Below, one piece after another: positions 3,995-64,000 of a stretch of 64,000 nucleotides of DNA. A program made the position numbers and the translations under genes. This DNA comes from Minisyncoccota bacterium (GTDB lineage: Bacteria > Patescibacteriota > Minisyncoccia > Phycocordibacterales > UBA5272), in the NCBI GenBank assembly GCA_046350775.1, contig JAXLZS010000001.1, forward strand, positions 481,838 to 545,837. The letters run 5' to 3'. Every line of letters begins with the position of its first letter. Within the stretch, counting starts at the first letter, position 1. The notes beneath the pieces are model-generated. The model was not told the origin of the DNA and did no database searches. It saw only the letters and a program-made list of their open reading frames with translations.

Positions 3995-5991
3995 TTTTGT
4001 AAAGATATTTGTAACCCCTCAAAATGCCACGACTCAGAAGGTATTTGCCGCACTCCATATTTAGCAGCATTTTGCCTTAACCATATTTGTTGTTGAGAAT
4101 TAAAAGTCGCAGGATTAGAACATGTGGCACCAGGTTTGTATCCTGGTTTTCCGTTGTCTGCTCCGGCACTATTAAAATCTATGGCGGCACCTAGTTGGTG
4201 AGGTGATGTCCCCGGAGATGCACAACCACTTCCTCCGACACTCCCACAAGAATCAGCAATTCTTGTTGAAGCATTAGATGTTAAGTATGTTTTATATTGA
4301 TCATAATAAGCTTTACCTAAATTTTCAAATTTTTGTGCCACAAGCGAATTAACAAAAGCTCCCTTATTATCAGAGGCTGGCATTTTAGGTAATAAATCTC
4401 CTTTTATGTAGTGTAATCTACAAAGTTTTATTTTTGGTTTATTAATTCCATTAGCTCTATAATTACTATCTATTATTTTAGATTCAGAATTGTTTGGACA
4501 AGGAGTGTCTAGACTTTTATTTGCCAGATCTTGAATATTTTTTAACCTGTCCTGACTTATATTACTCAGAGATTCTTGATTATTATTTGTCTGTATGGTA
4601 CTTTTACACTGCCCAGCCATAAGACCTACAAGTCTCCCGCATCTGTCCCCGGTTTGACTACAATAAGGAGATATTTTTGTTTCTTCCAAGTCTGAATATT
4701 TTATTTGTCCTGCTGCTTTTACATAATTTCCTTCTTTCACAAATTTGAGCATGTTTTTAAAATCATCAAAAGTTCCTTCCCCAGCATAAGACATGTCTAT
4801 CAAAACATTTTTTACATTAAGAGGTAAAGATTCAAAATTTATACCATTTTTTTCTGAAACTCTTTTTGCAATAGCTGTAAAAGTACCAAGATCTTTTTCT
4901 AGTAATTTTTTTACTTGATCAGGTGTTATTGTATATCCTGGTACTTGTTTTCCTGCTTTACTTGGATCTTTTGTAAGACTTGCTAATTTACTAGCATTTG
5001 CTTCATCAACTCCAGCAGCTATTAATTCTTGCTTTACATTATTATTTCTTATTAAATTGTATCCTACACCAATAGTAGGTATGCCTTTTGTATCATAATA
5101 AGCCGTAGTCTTGCTTCCTTCATCTTGAAGAAGCATATTTTCAATATCTGTCTTTGTATAACCAGCAATACTACCACAATCTCCGTTATTACTTGAGCCA
5201 GTACTCCCTAAACCGGTCACACTTTGTATAAATGTCCAACCTGTAAGATCTGGATTAATAAATGAAAGAACTGCATAAGCAAGTATAAAAATCAAAAGCG
5301 CCTTTCCCGCTGTCTCCATTAATTTTTTACCTTTTTGTTGATCGTATATATTCTCAAAAGCTCCTTTGGTTATGGCCCCCTCAATTATCCTAAATGCCAC
5401 TAAAACAATGATGGCTACAGCCATCAAGGTTAAAATATAATTAAAAGCATCTCCTAGTCCGCCGGTGTTTGTATTAGTAAAAGTGGTAGAAGTCGCCTCT
5501 CCACTAAAAGAAGAAATGTTTTGATATGTCTGAACAGCTCCCCCTAATGATCCTCCGTTTGCTGTTTTGTCTCCACAGTCAAACACAAGATCTCCACTTT
5601 TAGTTTTTTCTCCAGCTTTTAACATTAAAGCCTCCCAAGTATATATTCCTACATTTTTTTCTTGAGTGATACCGTTAATATTTCTGAAGGAGTTTATGGC
5701 GTTTAAGGAAGTATTTGTCATTACAGCGGTGTCTATATTATATGAAGAATCTAGACATTTATGATTTTTTAAAGATGTTATAAATAATTTTTCTTTATCT
5801 GCTGCCAGACTAGCATTTACTGCCAGCTCTATTCTAGGATATTTTACTGTGTCTTCATAGGTTGGGTCTGTAGCTGGAGCGGCATGAGATATTTTTACTG
5901 AGTTAAAATTAGCAATAAAAATAAACAAAAAAAATAAAAGAGAAAACATTTTTTTGCCAAAAGAGTTTTTATTTTGAGTATTAAGAAACAT
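3988..5991 (-). CDS. Bifunctional peptidoglycan hydrolase: GH24 (T4-lysozyme-like) domain plus M15/VanY-like D,D-carboxypeptidase domain, membrane-anchored; candidate VirB1/PrgK-like T4SS-associated hydrolase
   Basis: N-terminal signal/TM, then two internal TMs (…LTLMAVAIIVLVAFRII…, …LLIFILAYAVLSFI…). QDEGSKTTAYYDTKGIPTIGVGYNL aligns with the T4 lysozyme motif [24 protein letters not shown]. C-terminal SPHQLGAAIDF and ESWHFEG match the M15 SxHxxGxAxD / ExxH motifs. Confidence 0.7.
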   Translation of the reverse strand: MFLNTQNKNSFGKKMFSLLFFLFIFIANFNSVKISHAAPATDPTYEDTVKYPRIELAVNASLAADKEKLFITSLKNHKCLDSSYNIDTAVMTNTSLNAINSFRNINGITQEKNVGIYTWEALMLKAGEKTKSGDLVFDCGDKTANGGSLGGAVQTYQNISSFSGEATSTTFTNTNTGGLGDAFNYILTLMAVAIIVLVAFRIIEGAITKGAFENIYDQQKGKKLMETAGKALLIFILAYAVLSFINPDLTGWTFIQSVTGLGSTGSSNNGDCGSIAGYTKTDIENMLLQDEGSKTTAYYDTKGIPTIGVGYNLIRNNNVKQELIAAGVDEANASKLASLTKDPSKAGKQVPGYTITPDQVKKLLEKDLGTFTAIAKRVSEKNGINFESLPLNVKNVLIDMSYAGEGTFDDFKNMLKFVKEGNYVKAAGQIKYSDLEETKISPYCSQTGDRCGRLVGLMAGQCKSTIQTNNNQESLSNISQDRLKNIQDLANKSLDTPCPNNSESKIIDSNYRANGINKPKIKLCRLHYIKGDLLPKMPASDNKGAFVNSLVAQKFENLGKAYYDQYKTYLTSNASTRIADSCGSVGGSGCASPGTSPHQLGAAIDFNSAGADNGKPGYKPGATCSNPATFNSQQQIWLRQNAAKYGVRQIPSESWHFEGLQISLQNC

Positions 5992-6848: not shown

Positions 6849-6884
6849 TGCTATATTATAGCAAATTATTTTAGATGATTTTAT

Positions 6885-9293: not shown

Positions 9294-9341
9294 ACTAAAT
9301 ATTATAGCATTTAATTTTTTAGTATTAGAATTTATAAAAAA

Positions 9342-18203: not shown

Positions 18204-18227
18204 TTAGATAATATAGCAGATATTCTT

Positions 18228-31296: not shown

Positions 31297-31319
31297 TTTA
31301 TTTGTGCTAAAATATTTTT

Positions 31320-34257: not shown

Positions 34258-34432
34258 TTTTTTGTTTTGTAAATAAATTAATAAATATAAAGTTTAATAA
34301 TAAACCAAACTCTATAGAATCTCTCAATTCATACTTGAATTATATCAGAGTATCTATGTTTATTATTTTATTTTATCCACAAAAATACTCACCAGTTTTA
34401 TTTGATGAGTATTTTATGTTGTCTTGTATTGA

Positions 34433-41584: not shown

Positions 41585-41875
41585 TAGTCCTCTAACTCAT
41601 AAGCGGAATTCTGTTTATATGATCATTTATCTGGGAATATTATTACTAATATCCTCAAGCGGCACTCTTCAAAATATTTGAAGCACGGCCTTGCACACAG
41701 GTAAGTATTTTGCCGTTTCATCCGAACTAAATCGGTTCGTCACTGTTCGCAACTCTCGCCTTGCGGCGGACGGGCGTTACCCGCTACCATTTTAACTTTT
41801 TACAAAGTATGTGTTCCGACTTTCCTCAAGATTTAAAATAAGTTAAATCTCGCGATCATTTGAGGAAGAGATGTA
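41585..41875 (-). ncRNA. rnpB: RNase P RNA (bacterial type A-like, compact); ends approximate
   Basis: On the minus strand, the conserved P4 5' strand GAGGAAAGTCGGAAC (reverse complement of 41811-41830) and the P4 3' strand ACAGAATTCCGCTTATGAG (reverse complement of ~41590-41625) are both present. A P3-like hairpin (agattta…taaatct) is also seen. The segment is a GC-elevated non-coding island between tRNA genes. Confidence 0.6.
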
Positions 41876-45426: not shown

Positions 45427-45450
45427 CAAAAGTTTCACAAGAAACATAAA

Positions 45451-45480
45451 ACAAAATACCCTTATATATAAAGGGTATTT
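45451..45480. terminator. Bidirectional intrinsic terminator (aaaatacccttatatataaagggtatttt)
   Basis: Perfect 8-bp stem ACCCTTTA / TAAAGGGT flanked by A/T runs, after tRNA-Gly and at the 3' end of the convergent minus-strand gene. Confidence 0.75.
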
Positions 45481-45508
45481 TGTTTATTTCTTATTTGTAG
45501 TATTTTAA

Positions 45509-46057: not shown

Positions 46058-46116
46058 TGCTTGTAATATAGCAAAAACTTCATAAAATATAAAATCATTA
46101 TTTAACAAACTTAACA

Positions 46117-46148
46117 AAAAACCAGTGATATGTTTCACTGGTTTTTTG
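46117..46148. terminator. Intrinsic terminator downstream of rny (aaaaaaccagtgatatgtttcactggtttttt)
   Basis: 7-bp stem ACCAGTG / CACTGGT flanked by A- and T-runs. Confidence 0.7.
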
Positions 46149-46173
46149 TTTCATATGAAATTTTATTATGTTT

Positions 46174-47661
46174 TTATCTGGCAAATTCTATGACTCTGCT
46201 TTCTCTTATGACATTTATTTTGATTTCACCTGGATATTTTACTTCTGTTTCTATTTTTATAGCTATATTACGAGCTAGCTCTATAGCTTCAAAATCATTT
46301 ACTAATTTTGGTTCTACAAAGACTCTCACTTCTCTTCCTGCCTGCAAAGCATAGACTTTTTCTATACCCATAAAGCTCATAGCTATATTTTCTAGATCAT
46401 TTAGTCTTTTTATATAATTTTCTACAGAATCTCTTCTGGCTCCTGGTTTACTTCCAGATATTGCGTCCGCCACTTGGACTATAATTGATTCTATAGTTTC
46501 ATAAGGATATTCTTCATGATGAGCTTGCATAGCTAGTATGATTTTTTCATCTACACCATATTTCATAAGTATTCTTCTTCCTATTTCTACATGTGTACCA
46601 TCTATTTCATGATCAACCGCTTTTCCAATGTCATGCAACAGAGCTCCAGCTTTTGCGGTAGGGACATCTACACCGAGTTCTGCCGCTAAAATTCCAGCTA
46701 TATGAGCCATTTCTATTGAATGGTCTAATACATTTTGCCCATAGCTCGTCCTGAAATATAATCTCCCTAAAATTGGCAATATCTCATCTGGGATGGAAAG
46801 TAATCCACATTCCATGACGGCTTCTTCTCCTTTTTTTCTCATAAAAGTACCAATATCTTTTTTTGCTTTTTCTAAAAACTCTTCTATTTTGACTGGTTGA
46901 ATACGTCCGTCTTTTATAAGCATCTCAAGTGCATTTTTAGCGATAGCTCTGCGGACAGGGTCAAAACAAGATACTACGACTGCATTTGGTATCTCATCTA
47001 CCAATACTTCTACACCACTTGCCCTTTCAAAAGCTTTTATATTTCTTCCTTCTTTTCCAATTATTTTACCTTTAGTTTCTTCGTCTTGTATTTCTACGAC
47101 GCTAGACATGAATTCTGTGATATTAGAATTACCAATTCTATAAATCGCATTGGCTAATATATCTCTTGCTCTCGCTTCAAATCTCTGCTCGCCATCACGA
47201 GACAATTTTAATAGGCGAGATTGCAAATCCTCACTTGCTTCTTTTTCTATTTTTTTAATTAAAAGATTTTTAGCTTCTTCTTTTGTGAGAGAGGCGACTT
47301 TTTCTAATTCGCCATCAATACTATTTTCTTTTTTTAATATTCTAGCTTTGATTTCTTTTACTTCCTCAGCAGCATTTAAAAGTTTTTCTTTTTCAAGTTT
47401 CACAGCTTCTTCGCGAGATTCTAATTCATCTTCTTTTTTATCAAGTCTAGCTTCTGTCTTGTCTAGTCTTTGTTTTATTTCTTCAGAAAATTTAAGAGCT
47501 TCTTCTTCTATTTTTTTAGCTTCTCTTTTTGCTGACAATATTCTTTCTTCTAATTTATTTTCAATAGAGTTTCTATTTAGAAGAGCGACATAGTGTCTAC
47601 CGATATAGCCAATAGCCATTCCGGCTATGCCAGCGATAACTGTATAAATAATCCATGTCAT
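46174..47661 (-). CDS. rny: Ribonuclease Y
   Basis: N-terminal TM, coiled-coil, KH domain (GKIIGKEGRNIKAFERASGVEVLVDE) and HD domain (HSIEMAHIAGILAAELG…LLHDIGKA). Confidence 0.85.
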   Translation of the reverse strand: MTWIIYTVIAGIAGMAIGYIGRHYVALLNRNSIENKLEERILSAKREAKKIEEEALKFSEEIKQRLDKTEARLDKKEDELESREEAVKLEKEKLLNAAEEVKEIKARILKKENSIDGELEKVASLTKEEAKNLLIKKIEKEASEDLQSRLLKLSRDGEQRFEARARDILANAIYRIGNSNITEFMSSVVEIQDEETKGKIIGKEGRNIKAFERASGVEVLVDEIPNAVVVSCFDPVRRAIAKNALEMLIKDGRIQPVKIEEFLEKAKKDIGTFMRKKGEEAVMECGLLSIPDEILPILGRLYFRTSYGQNVLDHSIEMAHIAGILAAELGVDVPTAKAGALLHDIGKAVDHEIDGTHVEIGRRILMKYGVDEKIILAMQAHHEEYPYETIESIIVQVADAISGSKPGARRDSVENYIKRLNDLENIAMSFMGIEKVYALQAGREVRVFVEPKLVNDFEAIELARNIAIKIETEVKYPGEIKINVIRESRVIEFAR

Positions 47662-48291: not shown

Positions 48292-48390
48292 ACATTTTTA
48301 AGTTTCACAATTTTCTAATTTTTATTTTCTTTGAATTTTCAGTCTATCAGTATTTTGACAATATAGCATATCTCTATAAAAATAGAAAAC

Positions 48391-48420
48391 AAAAAACTGA
48401 TTGTTTTCAATCAGTTTTTT
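48391..48420. terminator. Intrinsic terminator downstream of hup (aaaaaactgattgttttcaatcagtttttt)
   Basis: 7-bp stem CTGATTG / CAATCAG flanked by A- and T-runs. Confidence 0.7.
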
Positions 48421-48442
48421 GTTTATAAAGTTTAAGTGTAAA

Positions 48443-48715: not shown

Positions 48716-49595
48716 ATTTTTATATTTATTTTTTAATATATTTAAAATATTTGTCTAAGATAAATTTCCTAGGATTATCTTAAATAATATTTGTTGTTAA
48801 TTAATGTGCACATTCTCTCAGTAATTTTTTCTTCTATTTCTAGTATCAAAAATTAACTTTAAGAATACCCTTATATTATAAAGCTTTTTTTTATAAAAAT
48901 ACAAGTTGACAAATTGTATATACGTTGCACTTTATAAAAGTCTTGTCTTAAGTGATTATTTTATATAAAAATTTAGACAAATAAAAAACTCCCCATAATT
49001 ACAGCCGGGAGCGGAGCTCGACCTGTCGCTGGACATGATTGGGAAGCTTTTAGGAGTCTTCTCATGTCCAGCGATTTATACTATTTTCACACTAGTACAA
49101 GTCGCTGGACACGAATAAACCAAATTGATTGTTTTTTTTGAGGTGTCATCCTCTAGTATTTGAGATTGTCCTTTATTCACATAAGGGACGAGATTGGCTT
49201 TATCTAAAATTATTAAAGAGATAAAGCAAAATATATAAGTTTGGGTGCTATTATTTATAACATTTAGTTATGTTTTTAAAAGATCTATTTGGCGAGTCCA
49301 GCTGATGAATACTTTAATTTATACCCATAAGCTGGGTGAGGCTTTGTATCATCACTACTCACCCTGTACTTATTATAAACGACATATAAATATTTGCAAT
49401 ACTTTGTCTTATAAATACTGTGGATAACTGTCCTTTATAAAATAAAATATAAATGTCTCTTATAAAATTTTATTTGTCTGTTATAAAAACCCTTGAAAAA
49501 TATTGTCCTTTTAAATATTTGCAATGTCTCTGTGAATTCGCTAAATTGAATGAATTAATAAATAAAAATATTAATACCTCTTGGTGAAGAGAAAT

Positions 49596-52743: not shown

Positions 52744-52775
52744 CAAATAAAAAATCCCGACTCGAGCCGGGATTT
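52744..52775. terminator. Intrinsic terminator (aaaaaatcccgactcgagccgggattttt)
   Basis: GC-rich stem ATCCCG / CGGGAT flanked by A/T runs, at the 3' end of the minus-strand gene 52793-53242. Confidence 0.7.
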
Positions 52776-52792
52776 TTAAATCGCAGTCTTTT

Positions 52793-53242: not shown

Positions 53243-53394
53243 CGCGTAAAATTTATTGATTTAAAATTTGGTTTTGAAAAAGCTGAATTTAAACTATCAC
53301 ATTATAAAAACTTTGTCAAACAAAGAAAAATAACATATAAAATTATTTTACATGTTAAAAATATTTTTTTGTATAGCGTGATAAAATTATCTGT

Positions 53395-56400: not shown

Positions 56401-56404
56401 TCAA

Positions 56405-56434
56405 AATCCCGTCATTTATGGTGACGGGATTTTT
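56405..56434. terminator. Bidirectional intrinsic terminator (aaaatcccgtcatttatggtgacgggatttttt)
   Basis: Perfect 9-bp stem between the convergent ORF 56071-56400 and rpmB. Confidence 0.8.
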
Positions 56435-56652: not shown

Positions 56653-56740
56653 AGATTTGATTTCTTAATATTCGAACATATTAACATAAAAATCTATTTT
56701 TTGCAAAGTTTAAGGAGACAATTTGAGTTATTCACAGAAT

Positions 56741-56835
56741 TTTTTATAAAAGACTTGTCTTTTATAATATGTCGTTTATAATTAAAACAAGGGTGCTAAG
56801 ACTAAAGTCTTTTTGGTCTTAGCATTTTTGTTTTA
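56741..56835 (+). promoter_or_regulatory. Promoter/leader module 1: TTGTCT-16nt-TATAAT promoter-like segment, then aacaagggtgct and a hairpin (ctaagactaaagtctttttggtcttag) plus T-run, ~30 nt before the ATG of the BNR-repeat gene
   Basis: A 47-nt segment, tttttataaaagacttgtcttttataat(a/g)tgtcgtttataat, is almost identical to 60617-60663. It is followed by a structurally analogous but sequence-different hairpin+U-run. Confidence 0.5.
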
Positions 56836-56866
56836 AAATCTCAATTTATTAAATAACTTTATATAT

Positions 56867-59068
56867 ATGAATATTACAATTAATTTAAAGAAAATAGCAT
56901 TATTTAGTGTTTTTTCTTTTGTTTTATTATTTAATTTATCATCTGTAGCTTTTGCGGCTAATGGGTGGACTATACAAACAGGAGCTGGTCAACATGCTTG
57001 GCATTCTATAACTTCTTCTTCCGACGGCACAAAGCTTGCAGCTGTAGATATTAATGGTTACATATACACTTCCACAGACTCAGGTGTCACCTGGACAGAG
57101 CAGACAGGATCAGGACAACGTGCCTGGTATACTATTGTATCATCATCTGATGGAACAAAATTAGCAGTTACAGATTCTAACAATGGTTACATATATACTT
57201 CTACCGACAGCGGTGTCACATGGACGCAACAAATAGGATCAGGACAAAGAAATTGGTATTTTATTACTTCCTCTGCAGACGGCACTAAACTAGCCGCTAC
57301 TAGTATGAGTGGTAATATTTACACTTCCACAGACTCAGGTGTCACCTGGACAGAGCAGACAGGATCAGGCTCGCATTATTGGTTTTCTATTACCTCATCA
57401 TCTGATGGTACAAAATTAGCTGCAGTGTCACGTTATGGCTATATTTACACTTCCACAGACAGCGGCGTAACCTGGACAGAGCAGACAGGATCAGGACAAC
57501 GTATTTGGCAAGATATAGCCTCTTCTGCTGATGGTACAAAGTTGGTAGCGGTAACAGACAGTAACGGATACATATATACTTCTAACGATAGTGGTGTCAC
57601 CTGGACAGAGCAGACAGGATCAGGACAATATTCCTGGAACGCTGTTAGCTCCTCTGCTGATGGTACCAAATTGGCTGCTCTTGTTTCAGAGGGTTATATG
57701 TATTTATCTAATGACAGCGGCGTCACTTGGACAGAGCAGACAAATGTTGGTCAACATGGTTGGTATTCTATAACTTCTTCAGCCGACGGTACAAGATTAG
57801 CCGCCCCAGTAATTAATAACTATATTTATACTTATGGAGAACTTGGAGCTCCAAGAGTTAATTTAATAGCAGCTTCTATTTCTGGCTCTAATTCTATTTC
57901 ATTAAGTGCTTTTTCTACAACAGAAAGTACAATTAGAGGTTTTGAATATGGTTTAACAGCCAGCTACGGTTCTTCAACAGAAGAAACTGGGGATCTTGGT
58001 GTAGGTATATTTACAGCTAATTTGATAGGGCTAGAAAATAATAGAATCTATCATTATAGAGCTTATGTTATGAATTCTGCTGGAACAACTTATACGTCTG
58101 ATAACACCATTCTTCTTCGATATCAATCTTGGACAGAGCAGACAGGATCAGGACAACACACCTGGGTATCTATAGCCTCATCTGCAGATGGTACAAAATT
58201 AGCAGCAGTGGATTCTGCTAACGGATACATTTACACTTCCACAGACTCAGGTGTCACTTGGACAGAGCAGACAGGATCAGGACAACGTTCTTGGAGATCA
58301 ATTACTTCCTCTTCTGACGGTACAAAACTAGCGGCAATAGATCAAGGTGGGTATGTCTACACTTCCACAGACTCTGGAGTAACATGGACAGAGCAGACAG
58401 GATCAGGACAAAAAATGTGGACTTCGATAACATCTTCTGCTGATGGTGTAAAATTGGCAGCAACTGTAGCTTTAGATGGATACATTTACACTTCCACAGA
58501 CTCTGGAATAACTTGGACAGAGCAGGTAAATTCTGGACAGTATAATTGGCAGACAATTAGTTCTTCAGAAGATGGAACAACAATTATTGCTGCAGCGACT
58601 GATCCTTGCGGAGGATGTATGGGCTTCGGATATGTATCTATTTCAAAAGATAGTGGTCTTACTTGGACAGCCCAAGAGTCAATAGGTTCTCATTCATGGT
58701 CTTCAGTATCTTCTTCTGCTGACGGAACAAAATTGGTCGCGGTAAACGGTGGTTTTGGTTATGTTTACACTTCTACAGATGGTGGCACAACATGGACAGA
58801 GCAAACTGGTTCTGGAGATCGTAATTGGCACGCTATCACTTCATCTTCGGATGGAACTAAATTAGCTTTAGTGGACGGGGAATATGTATACACATCTAAT
58901 GATGGCGGCATAACCTGGGTACAAAATCTAGGGTCCACTCAACATAATTGGTTTTCTATAACTTCTTCATCTGATGGTACAAAATTAGCCGCCGGAACAT
59001 CTAATGATTATATACATACTTACAAAAACGACTTTCCCCAAGCCCAAAACGTATCAGTAGAATATTAA
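56867..59068 (+). CDS. Secreted BNR/Asp-box repeat (beta-propeller-type) protein, 733 aa, with a central inserted domain
   Basis: Signal peptide, then ~13 repeats of ~42-45 aa, each ending YIYTSTDSGVTWTEQTGSGQ (Asp-box S-x-D-x-G-x-T-W). The non-repeat insert at ~57830-58120 interrupts the repeats. Confidence 0.75.
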   Translation: MNITINLKKIALFSVFSFVLLFNLSSVAFAANGWTIQTGAGQHAWHSITSSSDGTKLAAVDINGYIYTSTDSGVTWTEQTGSGQRAWYTIVSSSDGTKLAVTDSNNGYIYTSTDSGVTWTQQIGSGQRNWYFITSSADGTKLAATSMSGNIYTSTDSGVTWTEQTGSGSHYWFSITSSSDGTKLAAVSRYGYIYTSTDSGVTWTEQTGSGQRIWQDIASSADGTKLVAVTDSNGYIYTSNDSGVTWTEQTGSGQYSWNAVSSSADGTKLAALVSEGYMYLSNDSGVTWTEQTNVGQHGWYSITSSADGTRLAAPVINNYIYTYGELGAPRVNLIAASISGSNSISLSAFSTTESTIRGFEYGLTASYGSSTEETGDLGVGIFTANLIGLENNRIYHYRAYVMNSAGTTYTSDNTILLRYQSWTEQTGSGQHTWVSIASSADGTKLAAVDSANGYIYTSTDSGVTWTEQTGSGQRSWRSITSSSDGTKLAAIDQGGYVYTSTDSGVTWTEQTGSGQKMWTSITSSADGVKLAATVALDGYIYTSTDSGITWTEQVNSGQYNWQTISSSEDGTTIIAAATDPCGGCMGFGYVSISKDSGLTWTAQESIGSHSWSSVSSSADGTKLVAVNGGFGYVYTSTDGGTTWTEQTGSGDRNWHAITSSSDGTKLALVDGEYVYTSNDGGITWVQNLGSTQHNWFSITSSSDGTKLAAGTSNDYIHTYKNDFPQAQNVSVEY

Positions 59069-59094
59069 TGATATAATAATCAAATAATAAAAAT

Positions 59095-59820
59095 ATGAAA
59101 AAAATAATCACATCAATAATATTTCTATTCATGCTAACCGTGAGTATAAATATGGTAAAAGCTACAGTCATACCTGTAGGCACATCAATAACTGGTCAGT
59201 ATACATATTATGACCCAGAAGGAGATCTGGAAGGTCAATCATTATTTCAATGGTATAGAGATGGTGTAGCTATAGACGGAGCTACTTATAGATCCTACAC
59301 AATAACATCTCAAGATGTTGGTCATACGCTTGTCTTTGAAGTGACACCTGTCTCATTGACCGGTATCTCTCCTGGAGAGCCAATCAGAAGTGAAGGTATC
59401 GCAATCACCGCACAATCTGCTGGAAATAGTGGTGGTGGAGGATCTTCTGGTGGAGGTATGATATCAGTAATCGTACCAGCTAGCACCTCTACACCAGTCA
59501 TTACTTTTTTGACATCTGGGGCTACAACTTCTTCTACTACAGTAGTTATTAATAACAATTCAAATCTAGGTGGTATCATCTCACAGATTGCTAGAACGTT
59601 AAAATATGGCATGTCAGGTGTAGATGTGAAAGCTCTTCAAATATATCTAAATACTAATGGATATATAGTAGCTAAATCAGGAGCAGGATCACCTGGTCAT
59701 GAGACTAACTATTTTGGTCTTGCTACTAAAGCTGCAGTCATGAGATTCCAAAAAGCTAATAAGATCACTCCTGTTTCAGGTCTCGTTGGCCCTTTAACAA
59801 GAGCGGTGATTAATAAATAG
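59095..59820 (+). CDS. Secreted protein with N-terminal Ig-like/beta domain, Gly/Ser/Thr linker and C-terminal peptidoglycan-binding (PG_binding_1-like) domain
   Basis: Signal peptide. C-terminal LKYGMSGVDVKALQIYLNTNGY…ATKAAVMRFQKANKITPVSGLVGPLTRAVIN matches the PG-binding helical repeat pattern. Confidence 0.65.
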   Translation: MKKIITSIIFLFMLTVSINMVKATVIPVGTSITGQYTYYDPEGDLEGQSLFQWYRDGVAIDGATYRSYTITSQDVGHTLVFEVTPVSLTGISPGEPIRSEGIAITAQSAGNSGGGGSSGGGMISVIVPASTSTPVITFLTSGATTSSTTVVINNNSNLGGIISQIARTLKYGMSGVDVKALQIYLNTNGYIVAKSGAGSPGHETNYFGLATKAAVMRFQKANKITPVSGLVGPLTRAVINK

Positions 59821-59844
59821 ATATCTATTTACAAATAAATAAAT

Positions 59845-59870
59845 AAAAACCATCCGAGAGGGTGGTTTTT
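59845..59870. terminator. Intrinsic terminator (aaaaaccatccgagagggtggttttt)
   Basis: Stem CCATCC / GGTGG(T) with flanking A/T runs, directly after the 59095-59820 gene. Confidence 0.65.
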
Positions 59871-59890
59871 ATGATATTATTAATAATATT

Positions 59891-60592
59891 ATGATAACTT
59901 CAATATTTTTTATAATAATTCTCTTTTATTCTATAGTTTTTCATGAGATTGCTCATGGATATGCAGCTTATAGAAATGGCGATATGACAGCTTTTAATGC
60001 TGGTCGCCTAACGCTCAATCCATTAAGACATATTGATATGATTGGGTCTATTATAGTACCCATAATTTCTTATTTTGCTTTTAATTTTGCTTTTGGTTGG
60101 GCAAAGCCAGTACCGTACAATCCTGAAAATATAAAACATAAAAAATATGGTGAATTGGAGGTGGCTTCAGCTGGAATAATTATTAATCTTTTTATTGCTG
60201 GACTAGCTATTTTAATATTTTATATTTTAAAAGGACAATTTTTAATAAATTCTGCTGTGGCAAATATCTTAATACTTACTACTACCATCAATTTATTTTT
60301 AGCTTTGTTTAATCTTTTACCATTTCCACCAGCTGATGGATTTTCTATATTTTCTGAGCTTTTCACACACATTAGATCTTTTTATGTCAATATAAAAAAT
60401 AAATTTAGTAAAAAGAAGATATACGAGGCAAATTATATAAATAATAATCCTATAAGAAATAAATCTTTTTATATAAAATCATTGTTTTCTAATCCTTTTA
60501 TGATGATAGTCATAATATTTGTAGCGGTAAATGTGTTTAGTCTGCTTGTGCCATTCGTCTTGTCTTTTATAAATTATTTATATTCTTTTTAA
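59891..60592 (+). CDS. Peptidase M50-like (site-2 protease family) small polytopic membrane metalloprotease
   Basis: HEIAHGYAAY (HExxH within a TM) and LLPFPPADG (M50 NxxPxxxLDG-like) motifs; 233 aa with multiple TMs. Confidence 0.65.
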   Translation: MITSIFFIIILFYSIVFHEIAHGYAAYRNGDMTAFNAGRLTLNPLRHIDMIGSIIVPIISYFAFNFAFGWAKPVPYNPENIKHKKYGELEVASAGIIINLFIAGLAILIFYILKGQFLINSAVANILILTTTINLFLALFNLLPFPPADGFSIFSELFTHIRSFYVNIKNKFSKKKIYEANYINNNPIRNKSFYIKSLFSNPFMMIVIIFVAVNVFSLLVPFVLSFINYLYSF

Positions 60593-60616
60593 TTTGTCTT
60601 TTAGTTATCCACACAT

Positions 60617-60712
60617 CTTTTTATAAAAGACTTGTCTTTTATAATGTGTCGTTTATAATATATACATATAAGCAAGGGTCGCTCAACTTTATAGTTGGCG
60701 ACTTTTGTTTTT
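60617..60712 (+). promoter_or_regulatory. Promoter/leader module 2 (paralogous to 56741-56835): same 47-nt promoter-like segment, then caagggtcgct and a hairpin (caactttatagttg within gtcgctcaac…gttggcgac) plus T-run, 15 nt before the ATG of the giant repeat gene
   Basis: Near-identity of the first ~47 nt with module 1. The hairpin differs in sequence but keeps the stem + U-run architecture. A perfect DnaA-box sequence TTATCCACA lies just upstream at 60605-60613. Confidence 0.5.
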
Positions 60713-60726
60713 ATGAATTATTAATT

Positions 60727-63700
60727 ATGAAAAAAATATTAAAACTAATCATAAATACATTTTTAGTTTTTTCACTATTGTTTTCTTTTTCTTTTGCGGC
60801 AATTAATGATTCTTCTTCTGCCAGTCTTTGGGATAAAATCTCTGTGCGTGTATATTGTGGACTTAATAATATTTTAAACATTACCAATCTATGTAAAAGT
60901 AAAGAACAATCTGTTAAAAGTAAAAGCACTTATTCTATAAACTCTTCTGTTATTTCTATAGCTACATCTACTCCTACGACTACATTATCATCAAAGCCTC
61001 TCACTTGGAATTATGTACCAGTAGCCAATAATAATGTAAACAATCTTGTTGGTCCGCAAGGACCACAAGGCCCAGCCGGACCTCCTGGTCCACCAGGTCC
61101 TGTAGCTACTTCTTCTTGGGTTAATTATGTACCTGTGCAAGGACCACCAGGCCCAGCCGGCCCCCAAGGTCCAGCTGGACCTGCTGGCGGAGGAGGTTCT
61201 GCTTCTACTACTAATTCTATTCTTAGTGCGACAAATCTACTTACTTCAATAGTGAATGGAGAAGTGTCTACAACTTCAATAATAAATTCAAATATCGCCT
61301 CATCATCAAACAATCTTCTTCAGACCATTGTGAATGGTGTCTACTCTAATACAATATCTATAATATTTTCAAATGATCTTTCTTTTGATGGGAATATCTT
61401 AACTTCTTCTGTAAATGGCGTATCAACAAGTACGGATTTGTCATCATTGAGACCAAAATGGTATGCGGAAAATATTGATGCACCGACCGTTTCTCCTACT
61501 TCTACAGGTGTAGGGTCTATTGCTCTTGGTGATGGAGCTCAAGCTTTGTCTGATAATATGTTTGTCTATGGAAATAATGCTGGGGTTGATGCTATAAACG
61601 CGAATAATTCAAACTTTGTAGGAAATAATGCTGGAGCTAGTTCTACACGTGCTAGCAACTCAAACTTTTTAGGATATAATTCTGGATATGAAGCGACAGA
61701 TGCATACAACTCAAATTTCTTAGGATATCAATCAGGAAAAAATGCTACAAATGCATCTTATTCAAACTTTTTTGGTGCTAATTCTGGCTCTCAAGCTTCT
61801 GAGGCTAGCTATTCAAACTTTTTTGGTCAATTTTCTGGCTACAATGCTACATATGCTAGTTTATCAAACTTTTTAGGAGTAAGTGCTGGAGAATCAGCTA
61901 CATATGCAAATAACTCAAACTTTTTTGGCCAGCAAGCTGGATATGGAGCGGCAGGTGCTTATAGTTCAAATTTCTTTGGTATGTATGCAGGAATTTTAGC
62001 CGGAAACGCATATAGATCAAACTTTTTAGGTGAAAATGCTGGATACATGGCAACAAATGCATATATGTCAAACTTTTTAGGTAGAAACGCTGGAAATGGT
62101 GCTACCGGGTCAAGTAACTCAAACTTTTTAGGCAATGGTGCAGGTCTTGTAGCTAATAATGCGTATCAGTCAAATTTTCTTGGAAATGCAGCAGGTCTTA
62201 GAGCTTACAATGCATTTCATTCAAATTTTTTAGGATATGAAGCTGGAAAAGATGCTCAAAATGCAAACAACTCTTTCTTTGTAGGAAGAGACGCTGGATA
62301 TTTAGCTCCAAATGCTTCTTATTCTAATTTTTTCGGTTCAAATTCTGGCCTTGGTGCTACAAATGCAAACAATTCAAACTTTATGGGCCAAGGCTCAGGT
62401 CAAGGTGCTGTAAATGCAAATAATTCAAACTTTTTTGGTTGGGGTGCTGGATTTTCGGCTGAGAATGCTATAAATTCTAATTTCTTAGGTAGCTTTTCTG
62501 GAGCTTACGCTCCATACGCTTCAAGCTCAAACTTTTTAGGGTATTATTCTGGATATGGGGCAACAACCGGAAACAATTCAAACTTTTTTGGATATCAATC
62601 AGGTTATCAAGCTACAAATGCAAACAATTCAAACTTTTTGGGATATGGTTCTGGATATGAGGCTGTAGTCGCTTCAAGCTCTAACTTTTTAGGATATCAA
62701 TCCGGATATAAAGCAACAACCGGAAACAATTCAAACTTTTTTGGATATCAATCAGGTTATCAAGCTACAAATGCAAACAATTCAAACTTCTTTGGTCAAG
62801 GAGCTGGAAATGGAGCTGCAAGTGCATACAACTCTACTTTTATAGGAAATAATGCAGGATATGGTGCAACTTATGGAACTCGCTCTACATTTATAGGTCA
62901 AGAAGCTGGATATCAAGCTGGAGCTAATTCTGATTATGATGGTGATAACACTAGCCAGTATTTTGATTCTAATTTTATAGGATACCAATCTGGCTACCAA
63001 GCTACAAATTCTTATAACTCAAACTTTTTAGGTTTTAAATCTGGCTATCAAGCATCAAGCGCTAATAACTCTAACTTTTTTGGTAACAGTACTGGTTTTG
63101 GAGCCACAAATGCAAATAACTCTAATTTTTTAGGAACTGGTGCTGGCTATCAAGCAACAAGCGCATATGATTCTAATTTTTTAGGACAAAATGCTGGCAA
63201 TGCTGCCGCAAATGCAAATAACTCTGTATTTTTTGGTAATCAATCTGGAGATGGGGCTGCGAATTCAAATAATTCAAACTTCTTTGGAAGACTATCTGGT
63301 TATACAGCTATAAATGCATACAACTCTAACTTCTTTGGACAAAGTGCTGGATATGGTGCAACAAATTCTCACCTTTCTAACTTTTTAGGTTATAGTGCTG
63401 GCTATGGTGCGACGGACGCTCACGATTCCAATTTCTTAGGAGATTCAGCTGGTTATCAAGCAACATCCGCTTTCTTTTCTAACTTCTTTGGTCAAAATGC
63501 TGGATCTGGTGCGTACAATGCAGTCAGCTCAAACTTCTTAGGAAACAGTTCTGGTTTTAATGCTTATGGTGCAGAATATTCAAACTTCTTAGGTTATAGA
63601 GCTGGATATGTTGCAGTAAGTGCCGACTATTCAAACTTCTTAGGTTATAGCGCTGGCTATGGTGCGACAAACGCCAACTATTCCAACTTTTTTGGATCAA

Positions 63701-64000
63701 ATGCTGGAAATGGAGCATCCAATGCTTCATATTCAAATATCTTTGGCTATAAAGCAGGACAAACATTTACAGGTAATAACATAGGTACAAATAATATAAT
63801 AATAGGTACCAATATTTCTCTACCAGATGCGACAGCTAATGCTATAAATATCGGCGGAGTACTATTTGGTAGTGGAACATATGCGACTACTACAGGCGAC
63901 CCAATCATTACCCCAGTCTCTAACGGAAAAATTGGTATCGGAGTAGTATCGCCTGCATATACACTAGATGTAGGAAATAGTTCTGTATCTGGAGTAGTAG
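60727..64000 (+). CDS. Giant secreted fibrous surface protein (partial; no stop in window): signal peptide, collagen-like G-x-y tracts, then ~42 tandem 17-aa repeats (consensus SNF[LF]GxxAGYxATNAxN), then a distinct C-terminal-ward region
   Basis: ATG at 60727 (MKKILKLIINTFLVFSLLFSFSFAA…). GPQGPQGPAGPPGPPGP at ~61054-61105 and QGPPGPAGPQGPAGPAGGGG at ~61138-61195. Uninterrupted plus-strand reading frame to the window end. It is absent from the ORF track because it is unterminated, and the minus-strand track ORFs inside it are artefacts. Confidence 0.8.
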   Translation, partial: MKKILKLIINTFLVFSLLFSFSFAAINDSSSASLWDKISVRVYCGLNNILNITNLCKSKEQSVKSKSTYSINSSVISIATSTPTTTLSSKPLTWNYVPVANNNVNNLVGPQGPQGPAGPPGPPGPVATSSWVNYVPVQGPPGPAGPQGPAGPAGGGGSASTTNSILSATNLLTSIVNGEVSTTSIINSNIASSSNNLLQTIVNGVYSNTISIIFSNDLSFDGNILTSSVNGVSTSTDLSSLRPKWYAENIDAPTVSPTSTGVGSIALGDGAQALSDNMFVYGNNAGVDAINANNSNFVGNNAGASSTRASNSNFLGYNSGYEATDAYNSNFLGYQSGKNATNASYSNFFGANSGSQASEASYSNFFGQFSGYNATYASLSNFLGVSAGESATYANNSNFFGQQAGYGAAGAYSSNFFGMYAGILAGNAYRSNFLGENAGYMATNAYMSNFLGRNAGNGATGSSNSNFLGNGAGLVANNAYQSNFLGNAAGLRAYNAFHSNFLGYEAGKDAQNANNSFFVGRDAGYLAPNASYSNFFGSNSGLGATNANNSNFMGQGSGQGAVNANNSNFFGWGAGFSAENAINSNFLGSFSGAYAPYASSSNFLGYYSGYGATTGNNSNFFGYQSGYQATNANNSNFLGYGSGYEAVVASSSNFLGYQSGYKATTGNNSNFFGYQSGYQATNANNSNFFGQGAGNGAASAYNSTFIGNNAGYGATYGTRSTFIGQEAGYQAGANSDYDGDNTSQYFDSNFIGYQSGYQATNSYNSNFLGFKSGYQASSANNSNFFGNSTGFGATNANNSNFLGTGAGYQATSAYDSNFLGQNAGNAAANANNSVFFGNQSGDGAANSNNSNFFGRLSGYTAINAYNSNFFGQSAGYGATNSHLSNFLGYSAGYGATDAHDSNFLGDSAGYQATSAFFSNFFGQNAGSGAYNAVSSNFLGNSSGFNAYGAEYSNFLGYRAGYVAVSADYSNFLGYSAGYGATNANYSNFFGSNAGNGASNASYSNIFGYKAGQTFTGNNIGTNNIIIGTNISLPDATANAINIGGVLFGSGTYATTTGDPIITPVSNGKIGIGVVSPAYTLDVGNSSVSGVV
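61565..63770 (+). repeat. Tandem array of ~42 imperfect 51-nt repeats encoding the 17-aa units of the giant protein; includes an exact higher-order ~150-nt duplication (62521-62670 vs 62671-62820)
   Basis: Periodic recurrence of tcaaactttttagg / tcaaacttttttgg every 51 nt. The identical stretch ttttttggatatcaatcaggttatcaagctacaaatgcaaacaattcaaac occurs at ~62581 and ~62731. Confidence 0.85.

Follow-up and report, generated by a model that had tools for sequence, protein, structure and literature searches.

A promoter and leader-hairpin cassette, the probable mark of a regulon of surface-protein genes in a family-level group within the Paceibacteria

Near the end of a 64,000-nucleotide stretch of a Minisyncoccota genome (assembly GCA_046350775.1, contig JAXLZS010000001.1, positions 481,838 to 545,837, hereafter the window), two genes coding for repeat-rich surface proteins are each preceded by the same compact arrangement, made of an upstream box, a promoter and, directly behind it, a stable hairpin that ends in a run of uridines. 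This arrangement recurs in related genomes, and we understand it, with some confidence, as a promoter and leader cassette specific to one lineage, a family-level group within the Paceibacteria (candidate phyla radiation, CPR), where it would mark out a regulon of surface-protein genes, the hairpin acting as a protector of the 5′ end of the messages. The components of this proposal should be weighed separately. That the cassette is a promoter marking a regulon is, in our opinion, very likely, and the protecting role of the hairpin is a tentative assignment that may well be wrong. Its elements are familiar ones (the promoter of a regulon, equipped with an activator box, and a stem-loop at the 5′ end), which it combines in a form that is new and specific to the lineage.

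The repeat itself is real, and far beyond chance. In a sequence with a base composition of 31% G+C, the 42-mer TTTTTATAAAAGACTTGTCTTTTATAATRTGTCGTTTATAAT is present at two places only, 56741-56782 and 60618-60659, and 100 shuffles yielded none. The core consensus of the two window copies reads TTTTTATAAAAGACTTGTCTTTTATAAT[A/G]TGTCGTTTATAAT, with a single mismatch in 42 nt, and the similarity of the two segments spans 68 nt at 87% identity (56722-56789 against 60599-60666). An initial annotation of this DNA had noticed near-identical 47-nt segments carrying TTGTCT-16-TATAAT before both repeat-rich genes; this is what we find, its coordinates being correct for the first segment and shifted by one nucleotide for the second. 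The two pairs of hexamers extend over 56755-56782 and 60632-60659, and the 16-nt spacer, common to all three modules of the window (the third, on the minus strand, is described below), falls within the 16-18 bp that separate the −35 and −10 elements of sigma-70-type promoters. The core of the window copies also contains a perfect 11-2-11 palindrome, TTATAAAAGAC-TT-GTCTTTTATAA, and an additional half-site, GTCGTTTATAA, the third in each core, overlaps the −10 hexamer. About 41 bp 5′ of that hexamer stands the upstream box, which differs between module 1 and module 2, and another TTTGTCTTTTAG lies immediately 5′ of the box of module 2. The start codons follow the U-runs closely, at some 31 nt for the ATG at 56867 and 12-21 nt for that at 60727. 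The features of the window are collected in Table 1.

Table 1. Features of the cassette and of its surroundings in the window (positions are those of the window).
Feature	Position	Strand	Remarks
Module 1 upstream box	56728-56736	+	TTATTCACA; TTATCCACA in the 97% strain (L007); 34-36 nt 5′ of TGTCGTTTATAAT in all modules
Module 1 palindrome	56744-56767	+	right arm is the TTGTCTTTTATAA repeat, source of the −35 TTGTCT (56755-56760)
Module 1 extended −10, TGTCGTTTATAAT	56770-56782	+	TATAAT 56777-56782; predicted start about 56789
Leader hairpin 1	56783-56835	+	GGGUGCUAAGAC...GUCUUAGCA; U-run 56825-56834; 5′ untranslated region (UTR) of the 733-aa BNR/Sortilin-repeat gene
Module 1 gene	56867-59068	+	signal-peptide BNR/Sortilin-Vps10 repeat protein, 733 aa
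PG_binding protein gene	59095-59820	+	241 aa; next in the same operon as the module 1 gene
Extra CTTGTCTTTTATAA repeat	60559-60572	+	within the end of the M50-like gene
Module 2 upstream box, TTATCCACA	60605-60613	+	identical to the DnaA-box consensus
Module 2 core	60621-60659	+	palindrome/repeat 60621-60644; −35 TTGTCT 60632-60637; TGTCGTTTATAAT 60647-60659; predicted start about 60666
Leader hairpin 2	60665-60715	+	GGGUCGCUCAAC...GUUGGCGAC; U-run 60703-60712; 5′ UTR of the collagen-like/17-aa-repeat fibre gene
Module 2 gene	60727-64000	+	signal-peptide collagen-like, tandem-repeat fibre protein; continues past the window end
Module 3	49372-49428	−	GTTATCCACA box 49428-49419; −35 TTGCAA 49399-49394; TGTCGTTTATAAT 49384-49372
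Non-coding RNA, about 380 nt	48983-49365	−	5′ hairpin GGGUGAG...CUCACCC; own terminator CUCCC...GGGGAG-U6; upstream of hup
Word TATAAAAGTCTTGTCTT, the ‘third partial copy’ of the initial annotation	48933-48949	+	stray half-site-like word just past the terminator of the non-coding RNA

Related loci were obtained by means of the M50-like protein encoded between the two modules (L006, L007 and L023-L025), and further ones from a scan of metagenomes with the pattern GTTATCCACA-N25-45-GTCGTTTATAAT; in the loci selected by the pattern it is only the extra modules found inside them that count as independent evidence, together with L006, L007 and L023-L025. A protein encoded between the modules is identical to one from a metagenome-assembled genome that NCBI lists as ‘Candidatus Paceibacterota bacterium’; the identical M50-like protein led to two short Logan contigs only, and for the 733-aa protein of module 1 an exact look-up returned no record. 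The cassette is present in at least eight related Paceibacteria genomes (loci L006, L007, L015-L018 and L021-L025), with shared proteins that are 64-97% identical. In the closest of these, the 97% strain, a third copy comes next after the collagen-like gene, just past the point where the window ends, the fibre protein of module 2 being there 1398 aa long. A 79% relative (L006) has two copies, placed before genes for surface proteins of 1628 aa and of more than 662 aa, the second of which leaves the locus, and the other loci show identities of 65-68% (L015-L018, L021 and L022) or 64-70% (L023-L025) in shared proteins. Aligned without a gap from the −10, the 22 distinct modules keep TTG and TATAAT invariant and follow the same order of elements: often an inverted TTATAAAnGACA, then (A)GTTATCCACA, 34-36 nt, TTGnnn with its 16 nt, TGTCGTTTATAAT, 5-16 nt and (A)AGGG. 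The box stands 34-36 nt 5′ of TGTC[G/C]TTTATAAT across these loci, and in the modules that precede messenger RNAs (mRNAs) this stretch holds repeats of the type TTGTC[C/T]TTTA, with one or two TTGTCnTTTATAA repeats. A −10-like hexamer, TATAAG, is further found at +2 to +7 in most modules, and is absent from module 1 and from the promoters of a non-coding RNA (ncRNA) to which we shall return.

The palindrome is not the conserved feature of the cassette: it has decayed in module 2 of L007 and is replaced elsewhere by direct repeats. As a probe, its 22 nt gave, in a scan of genome contigs, three unrelated chance matches, in Bacillaceae and Daejeonella. Whether the module might be scattered at random, coding regions included, was a weakness that the initial annotation had itself foreseen. 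In the window and in the fetched loci complete modules lie solely upstream of genes, never inside a coding sequence, and a relaxed scan of the whole window (box, N39-42, TATAAT) returned three sites only. Perfect TTATCCACA boxes are located within modules in 19 of 23 cases over the 164 kb examined. The TTATCCACA word at 34373 in the window, which sits within a terminator-like hairpin and has no promoter, is a chance occurrence, and the metagenome matches L011-L014 were discarded as unrelated clusters of DnaA boxes that adjoin an rnpA-like open reading frame (ORF), probably origin regions. They belong to an organism of higher G+C content and show (for instance in L011, 8400-8560, minus strand) several DnaA boxes in both orientations near this ORF, in what is probably an origin or a dnaA-rpmH region.

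This pattern of conservation bears on the most deflationary account, according to which the repeat has no function and results from a recent duplication or gene conversion, or is the remnant of a mobile element, the palindrome being possibly a recombination site. The window copies do differ at one base only in 42 and do hold a perfect palindrome; yet the spacing remains fixed, with variable bases in the spacers, in genomes that show no more than 64-79% protein identity, the palindrome is not conserved, viral contigs gave no match, and neither a transposase gene nor a terminal-repeat architecture was seen. The only inverted repeats of the cassette are its internal 11-2-11 palindrome and its hairpin, which is not the anatomy of a mobile element, of a miniature inverted-repeat transposable element or of a recombination site, and we find this account scarcely credible.

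The promoter differs from that of housekeeping genes. The latter (tRNAs, RNase P RNA and rpmB in the window, tuf in relatives) follow the form TTGnnn-17-TGTGATAAAAT and have no box, whereas the cassette would use a sigma-70-type promoter with TTGnnn, a 16-nt spacer and a perfect TATAAT that always comes behind TGTCGTT. The position of the box is fixed as well, centred near −58. The consensus of the DnaA box is TTATCCACA (PMC8203912), and the match to it (TTWTNCACA) is perfect, at nine of nine positions, in module 2, in the ncRNA module and in most relatives, module 1 having TTATTCACA. An activator presumably binds there and would couple all the genes of the cassette. DnaA is the obvious candidate, to be taken as a lead: its consensus is matched by the box, and regulators are few in this genome. 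The full match, and a fixed upstream position of the kind typical of an activator site, bring these promoters close to those with DnaA boxes. They show, however, a single putative site per promoter instead of pairs or clusters, their targets are surface proteins and an ncRNA, which correspond to no known DnaA regulon, and some modules carry TTATCCCCA or TTTTCCCCA, where the CACA core is broken. The window contains no dnaA gene or oriC. One may go further and imagine that, in these bacteria of reduced genome and few transcription factors, DnaA, at the TTATCCACA box, would be the master activator of a surface regulon (fibre, BNR and peptidoglycan-binding proteins) and of the RNA of about 380 nt, thus linking the production of the envelope to the replication cycle, the polymerases loaded there being those capable of passing the promoter-proximal terminator. 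Were this true, the cassette would be a chromosomal, regulon-wide analogue of the promoter-terminator switch of phage late genes; we consider this extended scenario unlikely.

The nature of the genes placed behind the cassette is the same everywhere, as the initial annotation had surmised for its two surface genes: every downstream ORF begins with a signal peptide or a membrane anchor, and the Pfam domains recognised in the proteins are BNR/Sortilin, PG_binding_1, fn3, Flg_new, Collagen and Peptidase_S74. The protein of module 2, in which no Pfam domain was found over the 1091 aa that lie within the window, has collagen-like GPP/GPQ triplets (61056-61201) followed by more than 30 tandem repeats of 51 nt, or 17 aa (61523-63700). 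Several of the module-driven fibre proteins have in common, behind the signal peptide, an N-terminal motif that reads roughly (F/L)W(D/N)...(V/I)YC...LN(I)...C (60727-60900 in the window; from 13684 in L006, 11597 in L007, 1085 in L015 and 12341 in L022), which suggests a common anchoring or assembly domain, one with no Pfam match.

Orthologous genes also tell where transcription is expected to begin. In three orthologous peptidoglycan-binding genes (L016, L021 and L022) the message is leaderless, the ATG coming exactly 6 nt after TATAAT, which argues that this −10 is in use and places the predicted +1 at the seventh nucleotide after it. Applied to the leadered genes, this rule would have transcription start 7 nt past the −10, at the foot of a hairpin of 20-25 bp.

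The hairpins are exceptionally stable. Hairpin 1 (56783-56835) folds with −28.7 kcal/mol (z −7.9) and hairpin 2 (60665-60715) with −26.8 kcal/mol (z −8.4), their sequences differ, and for neither was a single one of 200 shuffles as good, in agreement with the stable hairpin and U-run that had been proposed behind each promoter. When 17 distinct leaders are folded from the predicted +1, a 5′-terminal hairpin is obtained in all, at −11 to −32 kcal/mol (z −3 to −9.6), with stems of 20-25 bp and 0-4 nt left unpaired at the 5′ end. At least ten different stem sequences are represented among them, with inner stems such as CUAAGAC, CUUAGAGC, CGCUCAAC, CGCUAAC, CGCCAC, CUAACUAAAG, CGCUAAAGGAC and UGCUAAUUGAGC, and a structure-anchored table displays GC/CG/UA/AU swaps at stem ranks 3-12, and also at −3 and −4. 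The two segments of the window are therefore, as first suggested, paralogous modules of promoter and leader hairpin in which structure is kept while sequence changes, and this holds in the window and in at least eight relatives. The stem-loop and its direct U-tract lie between the predicted start and the start codon, with U-tails such as UUUUGUUUUU or CUUUUUCUUUG. The purine-rich 5′ end, AUAUAAGCAAGGG, is held, for the most part by G·U pairing, to the U-rich 3′ side: G0 is opposite U in 13 of 13 leaders, and position −3 covaries with the non-U base that breaks the U-run (C-G in eight cases, G-C in one, A-U in two), which implies that pairing of the extreme 5′ end is itself maintained. The G·U pairs give the leaders a mean gain in stability of 11 kcal/mol in the sense over the antisense orientation, whereas the true 3′ terminators of the window are near-symmetric (+0.7 to −5.4). 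The leader hairpins form a distinct, strand-specific class, with the outward form (a stem, then UUUUGUUU) of the local terminators.

The idea of a 5′ hairpin as a general rule, considered on the leaders of tuf, was given up, as their hairpins are not significant (z −1.0 and −0.4). The initial annotation had also entertained a riboswitch-like leader, and this is excluded in practice, transcription being predicted to start at the foot of the hairpin. The 5′ arm lies 0-4 nt from the predicted +1, with no RNA upstream of it, so that no alternative, antiterminator fold is possible, and Rfam 15 recognised no family in the leaders at gathering or at relaxed thresholds, just sub-threshold noise of microRNA or small RNA models. 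Leaders and riboswitches of Rfam have in common with the present ones a conserved structured 5′ region, but here the structure comes down to one hairpin, in which neither loop nor bulge is conserved as a possible ligand site.

As a strong promoter followed by a hairpin and a U-run is formally a minimal small RNA gene, the product might be a hairpin RNA of about 45 nt, the downstream gene being expressed in another way. It is very improbable that this is the case: the stem varies freely in sequence among copies, unlike that of an RNA meant to act by base pairing, the 12-31 nt between hairpin and ATG in the window copies leave no room for another promoter, and the association with signal-peptide genes is strict.

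We may now come back to the protection of the 5′ end. The hairpin would shield the extremity of mRNAs that are unusual in having leaders, long and presumably abundant, as well as that of the ncRNA, from decay that depends on the 5′ end; the gene for RNase Y, present in the window at 46174-47661 and recognised by its KH (GKEGRNIK) and HD (HDIGK) motifs rather than by a family search, may be cited as context for such decay. Several observations make us favour this role. The very first nucleotides are kept paired, the ncRNA made from the same promoter also opens with a helix, this time with no U-run, leaderless members of the regulon do without a hairpin, and the strongest hairpin is found in module 1, where no upstream co-directional gene would need a terminator, rpmB being divergent there and the gene for a 109-aa protein having its own terminator (56403-56433).

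There are also precedents among the mRNAs of envelope proteins. According to work cited in PMC3997798, the ompA, papA and aprE mRNAs are stabilised by 5′-terminal stem-loops, and the same is found with the S-layer slpA mRNA and the stem-loop of its 5′ UTR (PMC10221546). In these mRNAs of Escherichia coli (ompA, papA), Bacillus subtilis (aprE) and Lactobacillus (slpA), as presumably in the cassette, a stem-loop placed a few nucleotides from the 5′ end is combined with a strong promoter and an abundant message for a surface or secreted protein; it protects there against 5′-end-dependent decay (PMC10221546 and work cited in PMC3997798), a function that is predicted here. The features of a 5′-terminal stem-loop are found in our leaders, with a helix within 0-4 nt of the predicted 5′ end and conservation of structure rather than of sequence. 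By contrast with the precedents, the present element is a regulon-wide cassette, repeated before many genes and fused to a specific promoter, its 3′ arm is a terminator-like U-run, and it has no Shine-Dalgarno sequence that might be exposed.

The terminator-like form calls for another interpretation, that of a conditional attenuator. The hairpin and U-run would abort most transcripts at about +45, and a trans-acting factor, needed because no alternative RNA fold is possible, would make RNA polymerase resistant to the terminator or melt the stem; it might be loaded at the special promoter in the way of lambda Q, be a paralogue of NusG or be an RNA-binding protein. The shape is canonical, a stem that includes GC pairs and then UUUU(U)G/CUUU, in a form that cannot be told from that of the real terminators of the window, G retains U as its partner even at places where C would make the better pair, and long genes for structural fibres lie downstream. 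Lambdoid late promoters have sigma-dependent pause elements, and the TATAAG hexamer that most modules conserve at +2 to +7 is similar to them. In lambda PR′-tR′, a late-gene cassette read through by Q, one finds likewise a strong promoter, an immediate hairpin with its U-run, and long structural genes, and most copies of the present cassette also have the −10-like hexamer in the initial transcribed region. Against attenuation, the lack of RNA 5′ of the stem excludes mechanisms that rely on RNA only (riboswitch, T-box, leader peptide), module 1 and the ncRNA promoters have no TATAAG, and the hairpin is missing from the leaderless members of the regulon, so that the promoter does not need it. 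Furthermore, the AU-rich hairpins of L022 (12216) and L023 (10711) would make poor terminators, covariation reaches the extreme 5′ nucleotides, which is unnecessary in a terminator, and no antiterminator candidate emerged: the neighbouring ORFs of 109 and 149 aa have no Pfam match and no obvious DNA-binding motif, though no dedicated search was made. Taken together, these points leave conditional attenuation as a rather unlikely account of the cassette.

In tandem arrays the hairpin may have to be considered from the side of the preceding gene. It would then be an intergenic terminator or insulator of that co-directional gene, the next promoter merely falling within its 3′ UTR. Between the upstream stop codon and the box there is no other terminator in several such arrays (60592 to 60605 in the window, 13560 and 18570 in L006, 11434 in L007). 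Module 1, however, keeps the strongest hairpin where no co-directional gene precedes it, the gene upstream of the L022 module (12216) has a terminator of its own and the leader hairpin is still there, and both the G·U design, specific to one strand, and the paired first nucleotides of the transcript suggest a role in the downstream RNA. As a complete explanation insulation is, to our mind, decidedly improbable. As an accessory to 5′ protection it fares better: since the hairpin is the only terminator-like element after the preceding gene in tandem arrays, it probably blocks read-through from upstream, and it may also impose partial attenuation on its own transcripts.

Several considerations weigh against the cassette as we understand it, with its protecting hairpin. 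Our view is that of 64 kb in a genome of at least about 614 kb. What the sequences show directly is conservation in sequence and structure, constant spacing, the class of the genes and strand specificity, whereas the start site, the activity of the promoter, the activator and any effect of the hairpin on RNA half-life or termination are deductions. The few modules with TTATCCCCA or TTTTCCCCA in their box depart from the DnaA core. The compensatory pattern appears only in the structure-anchored table, built from each sequence's own minimum-energy fold over some ten lineages that are not fully independent, and RNAalifold, when given an ordinary MAFFT alignment, found next to no covariation, a weak signal that we ascribe to the misalignment by MAFFT of two hairpin types. 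Finally, each mRNA hairpin is followed by four or five U's and a U-rich tail, like the real terminators of the genome (AAACAAAA-stem-UUUUGUUU), which makes substantial termination of the promoter's own transcripts physically plausible, and the conserved G·U pairs could reflect selection on the U-run itself.

The third module of the window is oriented on the minus strand, with GTTATCCACA, 35 nt and GTCGTTTATAAT, and with TTGCAA-16-TATAAT at 49399-49372. It precedes a relatively G+C-rich stretch that would code for the ncRNA of about 380 nt, whose 5′ hairpin lacks the U-run seen, behind the same type of promoter, in mRNA leaders. Homologues are found behind the same promoter in L018 (5550-6030, plus strand), L019 (4274-4715, plus strand) and L020 (383-1, minus strand), sharing the blocks AAUAAUAGCACCC, AAUAAUAGCACCCAAACUUAUA and CUCAAAUACUAGAG and a hairpin GUGUCCAGCGA...UCGCUGGAC; at least one helix shows compensatory changes across them. 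Rfam 15 gave no family match for this RNA. Its identification as a tmRNA was rejected: a tag-like ORF is visible in the window (GCA...UAAUAA, preceded by AAUAAUA), but its frame is not kept in the three homologues, and ARAGORN and Rfam returned nothing. The initial annotation had foreseen a regulon of surface genes with possibly an ncRNA, and had linked the latter to a partial third copy of the repeat at 48921-48942. The regulon is upheld; the copy is not, as the word in question sits about 8 nt away from that place, with neither box, TGTCGTTTATAAT nor hairpin, and does not make a module, the ncRNA being driven from the minus-strand element at 49428-49372. In L018 two modules stand back to back, about 270 bp apart (5158-5543), one for a surface gene on the minus strand and one for the ncRNA on the plus strand, with extra TGTC(G/T)TTTATAAT elements in both orientations between them.

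The way genes are expressed in the rest of the window gives the leadered messages their relief. A Shine-Dalgarno motif precedes only one of 53 genes, and an extended −10 (TGnTAnnnT) is found 5-8 nt 5′ of the ATG in 15 of the 53 (about 28%), as compared with 1.4% of all ATG triplets; examples are at 6849-6870, 9294-9315, 18204-18225, 31298-31319 and 53373-53394. Leaderless mRNAs are apparently common and the organism seems to depend largely on them; the surface genes are exceptions, with leaders of 65-110 nt. Ordinary terminators, at 45449-45485, 46113-46150, 48387-48424, 52750-52777, 56403-56433 and 59843-59872, have a stereotyped, near-symmetric design, AAACAAAA-stem-TTTTGTTT, and look bidirectional. 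A match to class A RNase P RNA at 41585-41871 (minus strand) covers 287 nt for a model of 367 positions, with 107.7 bits for a threshold of 100, and may be a reduced RNase P RNA of the CPR type. At about 52.6-53.4 kb, genes flip from the minus to the plus strand and the cumulative GC skew reaches its minimum. A replication origin at about 53 kb was considered and set aside, as there are no DnaA boxes there and no dnaA gene or signature in the window, and this is probably a mere boundary between divergent genes.

Almost nothing is known of transcriptional control in Patescibacteria (CPR), organisms that cannot be grown alone and need surface structures to attach to their hosts, and our search of the literature on CPR promoter motifs or maps of transcription starts found nothing relevant. 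The interest of the cassette, otherwise moderate, comes mainly from this context, where such knowledge is nearly absent. It provides a sequence handle for listing the surface-protein regulon in related genomes, it puts forward, as a regulator site, a box identical to the DnaA consensus, and it flags a conserved unclassified RNA placed under the same control. It offers strong native expression signals for the CPR genetic tools now under development, and it illustrates the construction of leadered mRNAs in a genome otherwise reliant on leaderless ones and essentially devoid of Shine-Dalgarno sequences.

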